DNA of 63,440 bases, filler included, from Rhabdomonas costata (taxonomy: Eukaryota): NCBI GenBank assembly GCA_019059605.1. It is 45 parts of 45 records of this genome, joined end to end, with 100 filler letters (N's around TTAATTAATTAA, not from the genome) between each part and the next. Parts side by side here need not be neighbours in the genome. Positions count along the whole stretch, not along the records: positions 12,707 to 14,019 come from JAHMHO010019741.1; 44 more parts are not named here. The stretch is one strand, 5' to 3'. Shown in pieces: positions 11,096 through 49,423 of this stretch. Within the stretch, counting starts at the first letter, position 1. Each line of letters begins with the position of its first letter. Under the pieces are notes generated by a model. It worked only from the letters and a program-made list of their open reading frames with translations, searched no databases and was not told where the DNA came from. The position numbers were made by a program, and so were the translations under genes.

Positions 11096-11789
11096 CTACG
11101 TGAGGACGACAAGAAAACAGGTGAGGCAAAAGTGGTGCCTCCAACCCTCAGCCAACTTTCTAGGAACGGGACAGGGAAATGGCTCGAGAAAAGACAAAAA
11201 ACCNNNNNNNNNNNNNNNNNNNNNNNNNNNNNNNNNNNNNNNNNNNNTTAATTAATTAANNNNNNNNNNNNNNNNNNNNNNNNNNNNNNNNNNNNNNNNN
11301 NNNGGTTGGGGGGATGTCTACGGACCTCGCAAAGTACATCGCTGAAGAGCCAGCACCTCGGTTACCCTCCTCAATAGCAAATGTACTGTGTCTTTCTTGC
11401 CTTGGTATTCCTCTGCGTCTGTCTCCCCGGGTGCCAAATGCTTATGCAATTGACGGTGGAGACCGTCGCCCGTGGTAGCACCGCAGATACACGCGGATAC
11501 ACGTGGTCATGGCCTCTTCAAGGTTGTGTTCCGTTAAAAATTTTAAAAGGCGAGTGCCCCGGTTATGCGCAGTCTTGCGCTACTTGTGGCTGCTTTTCAA
11601 GCAAAAAGAAAAATTAAGAGCGCTTCTGTGCGTTTTTCGCTGGATGTTTGTGCTGAAGGGTGGAGTGGCTGGGCGACGTGTCGCCGGGAAACGGGCCCTG
11701 GAATGCACCCTCTACAAGGCTTTTGGTGGTGCTCAGCGTTGTACTTCATCTTTTATTTGGTTATGGTGAGTTGTTGGGTGTGCACACAG

Positions 11790-12527
11790 TCCCAAGCCCG
11801 AACGGTGGTGGACCCGCGATCGCCGTGGTACGCGCAGTTCCGGGCGCTGTACCGCCGCAGCGGCCTGGGAGCAATCTGGCGAGGGCTGAACGTCACCCTG
11901 TGGAGGGACGTCCCCTTCTCCATGATTTACTGGTGTAAGAGCGAGTGTGGGGTGAGCATGGCATGAAATCCATGAAATTCGTGTTAGGCACGCCACCTGC
12001 CCAGCCTGTTGTGTATCAGCTCTCCTTTGGCAGCTTCTGAACTTACCGCACTCACTTCTTGCAACATCCGTGCGTGGTGGTCGAATGCGCTGCCGTCGAC
12101 AAAGGGCTGGCTTACTCTCTACCCTCGGGTGATCGTCCTCAAGGTCAGCGACTTAGCTGTGCACGTGCCGACTGTTGTATCGTCGATAATACGACTCTTT
12201 GATCGGACACAAGAAGCACCGCAACGCGTAAACAAAGAGCTCACCTGGCCCATGACAGCGTTCGGAAGGACTTGCTGCTGCCGTCTGCACTTGTAGGAGG
12301 AGGAGAGAGGAAACTGTGAGAGAGCAATGAGTGTGCGGACCCCTCAAGGCGACAAAGACTGCACACAGTTTTCGGTGCGTTTGAGATGTTTGTGAGGTTG
12401 TAGGAGTTGAACGCATGTCAGTTTTTTTCCTTTTGGGTCAGGAACGGCTATGAGACCTGCAAGGCGGCGCTCACCCCGGCGGGAGTGGCCACTCCCCCTG
12501 TTTGGGTCTCCTTCGTGGGGGGCGCCG
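11790..12527 (+). CDS. Mitochondrial carrier, SLC25A39/40 (Mtm1)-like, fragment (exons 11790-11932, 12442-~12527)
   Basis: Reads GLGAIWRGLNVTLWRDVPFSMIYW|NGYETCKAAL...WVSFVGGA; the LWRDVPFSxIYW motif is typical of this subfamily. Confidence 0.85.
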
Positions 12528-12706
12528 CCTTGCAGGTCTCATAGCCGTTCCTGACCCAAAAGGAAAAAAACTGACATGCGTTCAACTCCTACAACCACAC
12601 AAACACNNNNNNNNNNNNNNNNNNNNNNNNNNNNNNNNNNNNNNNNNNNNTTAATTAATTAANNNNNNNNNNNNNNNNNNNNNNNNNNNNNNNNNNNNNN
12701 NNNNNN

Positions 12707-14019
12707 ATTTATTAATTCAAAATGTTGTTTTATTTTTTCTTCATCTTTAGCATCAATTAAAAGTAAATCTGTTTGCACACCATAACATGGTATATCAATG
12801 TTTTTAAGTTGTCTATAACGTTGAAGATTCTTTAATCTTTGATTGATGTAAATGTAATGTTTTATTGGGAGCATATTTTCTTCTAAATTACATGTTTTTT
12901 CAATGACAACTAAATATATTGTTCTTGGTGCACTACTGCTTATAAAGAAAGGATCAAATAAATGTTCAATAAACACATCATCATCATATGTTGTATCATC
13001 ATTTATTTTTAATGTTCGTAATGGATATGCAATGCCATTGTATTTATTAGCATAATATTGTGCTTCGTCTTTTTTTAGATATATTTTTATGACGCTTTTA
13101 TTATTTTCTATTTTACCACATTTTCCAATTAAAATATTAATAATATCCTTTTTATGTTTTTCATCTAAATCACTTGCATAAAGTTCATCAATTATTCCTT
13201 TTGAATTGCTTTCTATTATATTTGACGGTCTTAAATATTTAAGGACTGTAAATGGTAAACTACATTGTTTTAAGTGAATCCCGTATACGTTCGCAATATT
13301 TGAACCAACAAAAATAGTAGATTCAATACTTTCTTCAAATTGTGCATTATAAATAACATAATCTTCAAGATCATGATCATCATAAACAACAAAATTATCA
13401 AAAACATTAAAAATAGGTATATACTGCATATTATATAGATTGGCTGTATATGCTTTACATTCGTCAAGTCCAATTAATTTTGTAGGAATATCCAATTGAA
13501 AATAGCCAGTTTGCGGCATAACACAATATTTGTCAATTATATTTCTTGTCTCTGAATTAAATTTTGATACGAACATATCATTTAATAGCCATTCACTAAC
13601 TTTATTATTGTACTTATAGAATGTATCGAAATCTTTTTCATCTATAATATGTAAAGAATCTGACGCCATGCTTGAATGTTGTATTACATACTGACAATCA
13701 TTAATTTTAAAATATAAACCTTTAACTGTAATATCCTTAAAAATTACATCTGGGATGTACTTAGAGTTTAACATTTCAAAAAGCATATCTTGTATAGATC
13801 CATCATAAATAAATTTTATATTACTGTCCTTATTTTCATTAATTACATTATTCACAACATCATTCAAACAATTTATAAAGATTCTCTTGTGATCCACTTT
13901 CTCACTTTTGAACGTTGGAAATTTTGATGATGCTTCAAGCTGTTCGTGTTGCTTTTTTATATCACATATGACTTGTTGAAATGATTTATCATCACAATTT
14001 AATCTTTCGACATGATTAT
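12707..14019 (-). CDS. Divergent family B (protein-primed-type) DNA polymerase of a Polinton-like virus or virophage-like element; open at both contig ends
   Basis: The contig is strongly AT-rich and intronless, with one frame open throughout (about 437 codons). Motifs occur in the correct order: A-like LIGLDECKAY (Asp at 13465-13463), B-like KKDIINILIGKCGK, C-like CYGVQTDLLLI. Confidence 0.75.
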
Positions 14020-48012: not shown

Positions 48013-48354
48013 GTGGGGTGGGTTGTTTCAGACAGGCTGCGCGCTTACAGGACCAATCTCTCTGCTTTGGGTTACAAACACATTGCTCTCAATCACTCCG
48101 AGGCCGGCCGCGTTTGTTCACCCTCTCACCATGGTACTCACTCTCAAACTATGGAATGGTCATGGGCTGACATGAAAACACACTTTCGTGCTATGCATGG
48201 TGTGATCTCCTGCAGGGTTGAGCTCCATCTTTATGAGTGGATGTGGCGCCGAAACGTTCTCTCTTCCTCCGCCTGCTCTTTCCACTCCATTATGCTTCTC
48301 CTTGAAAGAAAGCGTCTCTTTAGACACGCTGCTACTTCTTGGCTTCTGGCTTAG
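48013..48354 (+). mobile_element. Merlin (IS1016/IS1595-like, ISXO2-type DDE) transposase, C-terminal half
   Basis: VVSDRLRAYRTNLSALGYKHIALNHSE...GTHSQTMEWSWADMK...HG...LHLYEWMWRRN matches SDxWxAY...GYxHxxVNHS...GxHTQxIExxWxxxK...YLxEFxWRxN. Intronless. Confidence 0.85.
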
Positions 48355-49423
48355 ACGTGATGTTTCTTGCAGCTTATTCCAGGAGTGCATGGGGATGCAT
48401 GTTGTATACTTGGGTAGTGGTGGTCGTCGTATACGAGCGCCATAAATATACTAGGAACAATAACACATTATTGCACACAATAACAGAAGCAGAAAATTTA
48501 CGGTACACACTCAATAGCAACCAAACACTTTAGTCCAAAAATATGGTTCTGCATATGATCTTTTGCCCACAAATTGTTCACTGTGCAAAGTCAACCACGC
48601 AAAAGAAAACAGTGAGTGACGAGAACAACCAAACGTAGCACAAATTAGGAGACACTATGCACAGGCAATGCAGAAAATAATGGAAGTGTACATTCAAATA
48701 TTGAAGAAATACAAGGGACAGAGAGCAAAATTGGCAGCCGCAAACTGTGATACTAAGTCGTACACATCGTAGAAAGACATATCGTGGAAATAAGAAGCAC
48801 CGCACGAGGAGCTCTGGAAGGCAGCGGACTCTAGGACGTGAGAGGGCCAAAATAAAATACAAGAAATGAGTTGTATAGCACGTGCAACATTGAAGGCATG
48901 AGGGCTGAAAATGGGTGGGTATCAGGCTACTGGGTCGATGGAGAAGAAGGGCGATATCATCACCTAAAACAACAATTTATCGAACTGTACACACTTCATA
49001 GCAACCAAAAACGTTCACAAAAGAATGTGCTTCAATACTGATAGTTGAAATGAAAACCTGAACCAAACAGAAATTTCTGGATTACATAAATTTACACGAA
49101 AACATCATTACCTACACTTGCTTTTAAAGTAGACTACACGTCTTGTCAAAGCACAAATGGAGCACTAACAACAGTCGACAAATCAATGGCAACCACAAAA
49201 AATACACATAAAAATCATTGAAATTACAACTACAACTTTAACACTTAGCACAAGCTTCAATCAAAACCAGCCGCTACAATCCACATCCGTAACAAAAACC
49301 AAAGTACACTAATAATCATATAANNNNNNNNNNNNNNNNNNNNNNNNNNNNNNNNNNNNNNNNNNNNTTAATTAATTAANNNNNNNNNNNNNNNNNNNNN
49401 NNNNNNNNNNNNNNNNNNNNNNN

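Follow-up and report, generated by a model that had tools for sequence, protein, structure and literature searches.

An AT-rich contig in the Rhabdomonas costata genome assembly most probably encodes an internal part of pPolB-S1H (Tlr1-like helicase), a replication protein of polinton-like viruses and Tlr1-type elements

Results

An uninterrupted coding fragment on an AT-rich contig

The window analyzed is a stretch of 63,440 nucleotides (filler included) from the Rhabdomonas costata assembly GCA_019059605.1 and consists of 45 contigs of 1303-1314 bp each, joined by runs of N and the linker ttaattaattaa. The contig at positions 12707-14019 contains a reading frame on the minus strand (12707-14017) which is open from one contig edge to the other, with 437 codons and 0 stops, compared to 21, 33, 34, 35, and 73 stops in the remaining five frames. 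At the base composition of this contig, the chance of finding 437 stop-free codons is approximately 7e-20, and the frame is therefore taken as a maintained coding sequence which is cut at both contig ends. The original prediction had described a frame open from end to end on a contig that lacks introns; the first statement is correct, and the second is borne out only insofar as nothing interrupts the frame. It had also doubted that position 13897 is the true start, rightly so, as the GTG at this position is residue 41 and the frame runs on upstream, beginning NHVERLNCDDKSFQQ. In relatives, the part corresponding to the 437 codons is preceded by approximately 500 further residues.

With a GC content of 25.4%, the contig is far more AT-rich than the 44 others in the window (42.2-59.0% GC), as had been noted before. 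Among 106 open reading frames of at least 110 codons in these other 44 contigs, no match to capsid, packaging ATPase or integrase families was found at E ≤ 1e-5. The one match at this threshold among the 106 reading frames was to an IS1595-type transposase.

The features of the contig are listed below, with residues numbered along the 437-residue translation.

12707-14017, minus strand: open reading frame fragment of 437 codons, most probably an internal part of a pPolB-S1H gene (translation with 67% identity to relative P0002)
14012-14017, minus strand: Asn-His, residues 1-2; His2 is invariant (69/69 relatives)
13493-13891, minus strand: alpha/beta domain, residues 43-175, with the order b-a-b-a-b-b-b-a-a in the secondary structure of the model
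13448-13465, minus strand: motif A, DECKAY, residues 185-190 (D185...Y190), with palm strand 181-185 in the model
13163-13432, minus strand: region between motifs A and B, residues 196-285, at the TPR1 position and within the span aligned to phi29 polymerase (label given by position and after PMC11161782)
13112-13150, minus strand: motif B, KDIINILIGKCGK, residues 290-302, with fingers helix 286-300 in the model
12788-13111, minus strand: region between motifs B and C, residues 303-410, at the putative TPR2 position and including palm elements
12767-12784, minus strand: motif C, YGVQTD, residues 412-417, in a hairpin of strands 411-415 and 418-422 in the model

Polymerase motifs are conserved among 69 relatives

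The three motifs are present as they had been quoted in the original prediction, and their conservation was counted over an alignment of 69 relatives (alignment A1). In motif A, D185 and Y190 are both found in 69/69 relatives and K188 in 61/69. Motif B is conserved to a similar extent, with K290 and G298 in all 69 relatives and N294 in 68 of them. In motif C, T416 (67/69) and D417 (68/69) are kept, and in the protein encoded by the contig Gln takes the place of the first Asp of the canonical DTD. Loss of this Asp, noted already in the original prediction, extends to the relatives: no Asp occurs at position 415 among the 65 rows listed, which contain Lys (49), Asn (8), Arg (5), His (2), and Gln (1), the single Gln among these rows being that of the contig. 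From the conserved motif B Lys to the motif C Asp the distance is 127 residues, in line with the more than 100 amino acids noted earlier. The region between these motifs (residues 303-410) is longer than its counterpart in phi29 polymerase, and residues 340-360 within it are modeled with low confidence. Because the residues of motifs A and B and the Thr-Asp of motif C are nearly invariant across 69 diverged relatives, their conservation argues for a maintained active site.

The predicted structure resembles protein-primed DNA polymerases

Searches with the sequence of the fragment alone gave no significant match in Pfam (best match C2_ITFG1 at E 0.038) or PHROGs (E 0.19 or worse) and 0 matches in the PDB at E ≤ 10. 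The Pfam family DNA_pol_B_2 (PF03175) did not match the fragment even at E ≤ 10. An AlphaFold2 model was built with the 69-sequence alignment A1 and has a mean pLDDT of 90.8. In a Foldseek search of the PDB with this model, all nine matches at E ≤ 0.001 were phi29 DNA polymerase (E 9.1e-7 to 4.3e-5), and the tenth match only reached E 0.024. VIA-align superimposed the model on phi29 polymerase with Z-scores of 11.9-12.8 over 327-332 aligned residues (model residues 42/43-437 on chain residues 5/6-478); the best alignment has a Z-score of 12.8 and an rmsd of 4.5 over 327 residues (model 43-437 on chain 6-478). For the remaining family B polymerases, Z-scores were about 7.5 or less.

A search of the viral structure library BFVD gave 30 matches at E ≤ 0.001, of which 22 are named DNA polymerase or PolB. 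These 22 come from phi29-like phages, tectiviruses, adenoviruses, bidnaviruses, mavirus and adintovirus, all of them protein-priming groups, and the top match is an unnamed protein of 999 amino acids (E 2.1e-12). In the ESM Atlas, a cluster with DNA_pol_B_2 ranked third (score 0.94), which serves as a lead only. Because of the Foldseek, VIA-align and BFVD matches, the palm fold of a protein-primed PolB is well supported for the modeled fragment. A protein-primed PolB had been predicted from the motifs, and the structure search with the AlphaFold model (phi29 polymerase at Foldseek E 9e-7 and VIA Z-score 12.8) bears this out. Phi29 DNA polymerase is the best structural match and has the identical order of motifs A, B and C; the fragment differs from it and from other canonical pPolBs in its low sequence identity (~10%), the missing DNA_pol_B_2 match, the absence of exonuclease catalytic residues, the lost first Asp of motif C, and the helicase which is fused downstream in relatives.

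The alpha/beta domain at residues 43-175 occupies the place of the 3'-5' exonuclease of canonical pPolBs and lies inside the span that aligns to phi29 polymerase when the whole model is used. Among the 69 relatives, no acidic position is invariant within residues 30-180; the highest count is at position 53, which is acidic in 57/69. The domain is without conserved catalytic carboxylates, and by this sequence criterion (0 invariant acidic residues) a functional 3'-5' exonuclease is absent, in agreement with the earlier remark that no clear Exo motifs are visible. When folded alone (pLDDT 88.1), the domain aligned in VIA-align to phi29 residues 5-185 with a Z-score of 5.2 over 95 residues, and glyoxalase-type b-a-b-b-b modules tie with phi29 (Z-score 5.7 over 56 residues). 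Foldseek found 0 matches at E ≤ 0.001 for the domain alone. The order of its strands does not clearly correspond to an RNase H-like exonuclease. Judged from the model, the domain may be a decayed exonuclease remnant; in the published account, the exonuclease domain was lost in the pPolB-S1H family (PMC5499653, PMC11161782).

Full-length relatives carry a C-terminal helicase

In public metagenomic protein collections, 455 representative clusters of relatives were found at E ≤ 0.001. Among the 150 representatives listed, most are 1,200-1,500 amino acids long and match the fragment in the middle of the protein. The closest relative, P0002 (1483 amino acids), is 67% identical across 100% of the fragment, which aligns to about residues 497-930 of this protein. 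P0003 (1503 amino acids) and P0004 (1355 amino acids) are 58 and 46% identical to the fragment, respectively.

In the relatives, a SF1B helicase lies C-terminal to the polymerase part, beyond the edge of the contig. The A1 profile matched the PDB entries of Pif1 (Bacteroides), RecD2 and Dda at profile positions 833-1181 (E 8e-11 to 4e-9), and its very C-terminus gave a weak match to the HNH enzyme PacI (E 0.34). Pfam helicase domains (AAA_30, AAA_19, UvrD_C_2, Viral_helicase1) were detected at E ≤ 0.01 in 30 of the 35 relatives scanned, and a second Pfam scan at E ≤ 1 gave helicase-type matches in three out of four. The original prediction had pointed to similar DxxKxY/xTD variants fused to a C-terminal SF1 helicase, and this proved accurate.

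At the other end of the fragment, His2 is invariant, and the upstream part of the relatives, which lies off the contig, contains a nearly invariant Cys in a NSC motif. His2 is probably the catalytic His of an upstream vOTU-like protease domain, an assignment that follows PMC11161782 for the vOTU domain and sequence conservation for the residue.

No source name among the relatives found links them to Tlr1, a named polinton-like virus (PLV) or a transpoviron. The names seen are MAG hypothetical protein, 'McrA', and 'hypothetical protein', and a profile search for named relatives returned ten proteins, none with an informative name. In a scan of the viral_contigs collection with P0002, no relative was found among the two pattern matches returned. 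A related cluster includes one partial member which has been deposited as a protein of an Alphaproteobacteria MAG.

An integrase gene adjoins the gene in related loci

A scan of metagenome contigs identified 51 related loci. The loci closest to the fragment are L001 (49% identity, 3975 bp) and L002 (46% identity, on a contig of 5094 bp). In both, a rve integrase gene is located directly downstream on the same strand (E 1.3e-15 in L001; E 1.7e-6 in L002, where it is cut by the contig end). The same arrangement was found in L003, L005, L008, L009, L010, L016 and L021, and a rve integrase gene adjoins the replication gene in L040 as well. Homologs of the L001 integrase are present in 24 further loci among the 51. 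An A32-type packaging ATPase gene was found only in L008, L009, L010 and L021, which are more distant relatives, and GIY-YIG nuclease genes in L005 and L008. No terminal inverted repeats were detected, either at the ends of the 40 loci longer than 2.5 kb (best 19 nt) or inside L002, L005, L016 and L033; the contigs may lack the ends of the element.

In a quick maximum likelihood tree of 45 rows with midpoint root, the protein of the contig is sister to P0002 (SH-aLRT 99). Both fall inside an eight-row clade on a long branch (support 100), which holds the contig's protein, P0002, P0003, P0004/P0179, L001, and L002/P0156. The gene neighbors (rve integrase and A32 ATPase) and the placement in the tree indicate that, by sequence, the nearest context of the fragment is that of Tlr1-type, integrase-bearing polinton-like elements. 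The PLV-type setting which had been proposed earlier is in accordance with these loci.

The five closest clusters comprise 69 members, and the 55 listed are all on contigs of 0.6-9.0 kb, many of them 5-7.4 kb; P0179 and P0182 are encoded on contigs of 8.4-9.0 kb. In the closest clade no contig exceeds 9 kb and none carries capsid or packaging genes, so that for this clade a virus is one possible reading beside a capsid-less element. The contigs of cluster 5, from the same source, are at most 8.7 kb, yet contigs of 13.7-16.5 kb are seen for its clade mates L008, L010 and L013. Small contigs were considered as a sign of small elements and rejected as such; contig size is given little weight because cluster 5 has the same limit despite clade mates of 13.7-16.5 kb.

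Discussion

The contig is an internal fragment of a pPolB-S1H gene with high probability

The features described above match a published protein family. Krupovic, Yutin and Koonin described in 2016 a 'Tlr1-like helicase' in which a pPolB-like domain bearing motifs A, B and C is followed by a C-terminal SF1B helicase (PMC5499653). According to the same source, the protein is without exonuclease motifs and occurs in polinton-like viruses, Tlr1 elements and transpovirons, and a HNH end is reported there for the PLV versions and not for those of transpovirons. In a PNAS paper from 2024, the layout was refined to TP-vOTU-palm-S1H (PMC11161782); the Tlr1 elements which give the family its name come from Tetrahymena (PMC11161782). 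Retention of motifs A and B together with replacement of the first motif C Asp is a family-wide pattern (PMC11161782, PMC5499653). The change in motif C was taken as inactivation in the 2016 paper (PMC5499653), and polymerase activity of pPolB-S1H is a published prediction of the 2024 paper (PMC11161782). The motif conservation in our alignment fits this prediction of activity better than the earlier reading as an inactivated enzyme.

We consider it highly likely that the contig encodes an internal part of the replication protein pPolB-S1H ('Tlr1-like helicase') and that the gene belongs to a polinton-like virus or Tlr1-type element. Since sequence searches with the fragment alone gave no match, the family assignment rests on the fold and on unnamed relatives; and since none of these relatives carries a name tied to the family, membership rests on the match to the published description. 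The fragment shares with the family the pPolB palm with conserved motifs A and B, the replaced first Asp of motif C, the lack of exonuclease motifs, and an invariant His where the putative vOTU domain would end, and its full-length relatives share the SF1B helicase and a HNH-type C-terminus. With Tlr1 it has in common that a rve integrase gene adjoins the gene in relatives, and that A32 ATPase and GIY-YIG genes are present in more distant ones. It differs in that the contig holds 437 of about 1,480 residues and that its closest relatives are unnamed metagenomic proteins of at most 67% identity. In addition, its clade is separate, well supported and on a long branch, and Gln is present at position 415 compared to Lys in 49/69 relatives.

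The contig's replicase had been ascribed to an undescribed PLV-type element. The replicase type is already described, being the published Tlr1-like helicase or pPolB-S1H (PMC5499653, PMC11161782) with 455 clusters at E ≤ 0.001, and the contig adds a further fragmentary member. Nothing specific to virophages was found in support of the virophage which had been named as an option.

On this assignment, the fragment would begin just before the vOTU-like protease domain ends and would itself end 20 residues past motif C, where the contig stops. In between would lie the exonuclease-position domain without catalytic residues, followed by parts of the palm, TPR1, fingers and TPR2. Judged by homology, what is missing upstream would comprise variable N-terminal domains with a terminal-protein-like region and the protease Cys, and the missing downstream part the thumb, the SF1B (Pif1/RecD/Dda-like) helicase, and a HNH-like zinc-finger end. 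From what is proposed for the family, the full protein is predicted to replicate a linear dsDNA element by protein-primed synthesis. The vOTU protease would release the N-terminal terminal-protein-like part, the palm would polymerize using the Asp of motif A and the surviving Asp of motif C, and the fused SF1B helicase would unwind the template ahead of the palm. Insertion into host DNA would fall to the rve integrase, whose gene would lie just downstream.

Alternative origins of the fragment

A transpoviron-like element, i.e., a capsid-less linear DNA of approximately 6-9 kb which depends on a giant virus, would be an alternative to a polinton-like virus. Transpovirons are linear, Mimiviridae-associated elements of about 7 kb which have terminal inverted repeats and lack integrase and capsid genes. 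They encode the same pPolB-S1H protein (PMC5499653, PMC11161782), and their helicase is counted in the fusion family in these papers. Like them, the contig at 12707-14019 is AT-rich and its closest relatives are on similarly small contigs, with 0.6-9.0 kb for all 55 cluster members listed above. This argument from size is weak, as clade mates are 13.7-16.5 kb and L008 and L010 carry an A32 ATPase gene. One difference is the rve integrase gene which adjoins the replication gene in the closest relatives L001 and L002 and in L040, whereas the transpoviron core set pairs a helicase and a zinc-finger protein with a third protein whose function is unknown (PMC7031253) and includes no integrase; the word 'integrase' has 0 occurrences in the text of that paper. 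The HNH-like end found in the relatives is a second difference, a HNH end being reported in PMC5499653 for PLVs only. We regard a transpoviron-like origin as quite unlikely. It is also unlikely, if somewhat less so, that the clade of the contig represents small, self-replicating and integrating elements of at most ~9 kb, placed between PLVs and transpovirons, in which the capsid module was lost and only pPolB-S1H and rve were kept. If so, this contig would for the first time connect such a lineage with a eukaryotic assembly.

Were the contig a contamination, it could stem from the cell of a bacterium or of an AT-rich eukaryote, for instance a ciliate with Tlr elements, and would have no link to the sequenced organism. 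The GC content of 25% compared to 42-59% in the other contigs could be read in this way, as could the partial member of a related cluster in an Alphaproteobacteria MAG and the origin of Tlr1 in Tetrahymena. Set against this are the fold, the fusion partners, and the rve and A32 neighbors, all of which are traits of eukaryotic polinton-like viruses. In the Tetrahymena-type code, TAA and TAG are usable in frame. The frame at 12707-14017 contains no in-frame TAA or TAG, which speaks against a Tetrahymena-type code and against an origin in a ciliate that uses one. Low GC alone is not a sign of contamination because endogenous PLVs of ~25% GC are found inside the 58% GC genome of a dinoflagellate (PMC12721341). 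One of these, from Oxyrrhis marina, offers a further parallel in that it encodes a protein of ~1,500 amino acids with SF1 helicase and pPolB and combines ~25% GC with a GC-rich protist genome; it differs in that the helicase comes first, the pPolB is complete with exonuclease, and the authors call the fusion independent (PMC12721341). Contamination is thus considered very improbable.

A stand-alone canonical pPolB with working exonuclease and no fused helicase, as in Polintons/Mavericks, virophages or linear plasmids, is scarcely credible: the fold is phi29-like and the N-terminal part aligns over the phi29 exonuclease region, but this domain alone reaches a Z-score of 5.2 to phi29, tied with unrelated folds, and has 0 invariant acidic residues, the first Asp of motif C is absent, DNA_pol_B_2 gave no match at E ≤ 10, and the full-length relatives examined run on into a SF1 helicase.

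For the pPolB-S1H fragment of a polinton-like virus or Tlr1-type element, which we prefer, several routes into the assembly can be envisaged. The contig may be integrated in the sequenced organism, may belong to a virus in or on the cell (free or co-amplified), or may be a contamination; it may also stem from an environmental virus without link to the sequenced organism.

Implications

The gene family, its domain layout and the peculiarity of motif C are all in print already. The practical value of the assignment lies in the correct annotation of the contig as a fragment of a PLV-type replication gene and not as a new kind of polymerase. Protists harbor polinton-like viruses in abundance, yet for most of these the only source is metagenomes that reveal no host. 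The main value of the find would be a host link, if real: with a pPolB-S1H fragment present in the assembly of one organism, a clade known so far only from unnamed environmental contigs may gain a host.

Composition of the window and features outside the polymerase contig

The window is a chain of 45 contigs of nearly equal length (1303-1314 bp each) that were joined artificially, and the runs of N with the linker ttaattaattaa mark the joints between them. The adjacency of contigs in the window carries no linkage information. Two features were found in contigs other than the one that encodes the pPolB-S1H fragment.

Features in other contigs of the window
12387-12605: foldback in the terminal part of contig 11304-12606
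48013-48351, plus strand: open frame resembling the C-terminal end of a DDE transposase of the IS1595/ISXO2 type (Pfam match, E 1.8e-6)

The foldback, in the contig placed directly before the polymerase contig, consists of two arms of 92 nt each that are 96% complementary and separated by a 35-nt spacer, and its appearance suggests a chimera formed during amplification or assembly more than a genuine biological feature. The transposase-like frame lies at the edge of contig 48013-49323 (42.2% GC). Of the 106 long open frames in the 44 contigs besides the polymerase contig, it alone gave a Pfam match at E ≤ 1e-5.

Related proteins and loci

The top viral structural match of the window's protein in the BFVD library was H6WBE3 (E 2.1e-12, 999 aa, 17% identity), an unnamed entry which in this structure search was far closer than every named polymerase and which may be a pPolB-S1H family member from a known element. 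Related sequences were also found on metagenome contigs. The partial protein P0183 (446 aa, a member of the P0156 cluster), which belongs to this virus-type family, is encoded on a 2553-bp contig and was deposited under an Alphaproteobacteria MAG as a hypothetical protein; this contig is probably viral and mis-binned into the MAG. In the closest related locus, L002, the replication gene is in two pieces, reflecting either a gene break or an assembly error. In a further locus, L016, an integrase adjoins the replication gene and carries a chromodomain at its end, an arrangement shared with the chromatin-targeting integrases of some retroelements.

Features in the related loci
L002, 792-3323 and 3392-4711: replication gene, two open frames (844 and 440 aa)
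L016, 7529-8458: integrase with C-terminal chromodomain (Pfam Chromo, E 2.3e-9)

Motif C and the domain at the exonuclease position

Features in the window's protein
12773-12775, minus strand: residue 415, Gln where motif C has lost its first Asp
13493-13891, minus strand: alpha/beta domain (residues 43-175) in the pPolB exonuclease place

Among the 69 aligned relatives, the window's protein alone has Gln at residue 415, and 49 have Lys. Two weak structural likenesses of the alpha/beta domain tied with each other: one to residues 5-185 of the phi29 polymerase, with 95 residues aligned at Z 5.2, and one to glyoxalase-type modules, at Z 5.7. In the published descriptions, the exonuclease domain of the pPolB-S1H family is reported as lost (PMC5499653, PMC11161782), whereas the window's protein has in its place a domain which may be a decayed exonuclease remnant.
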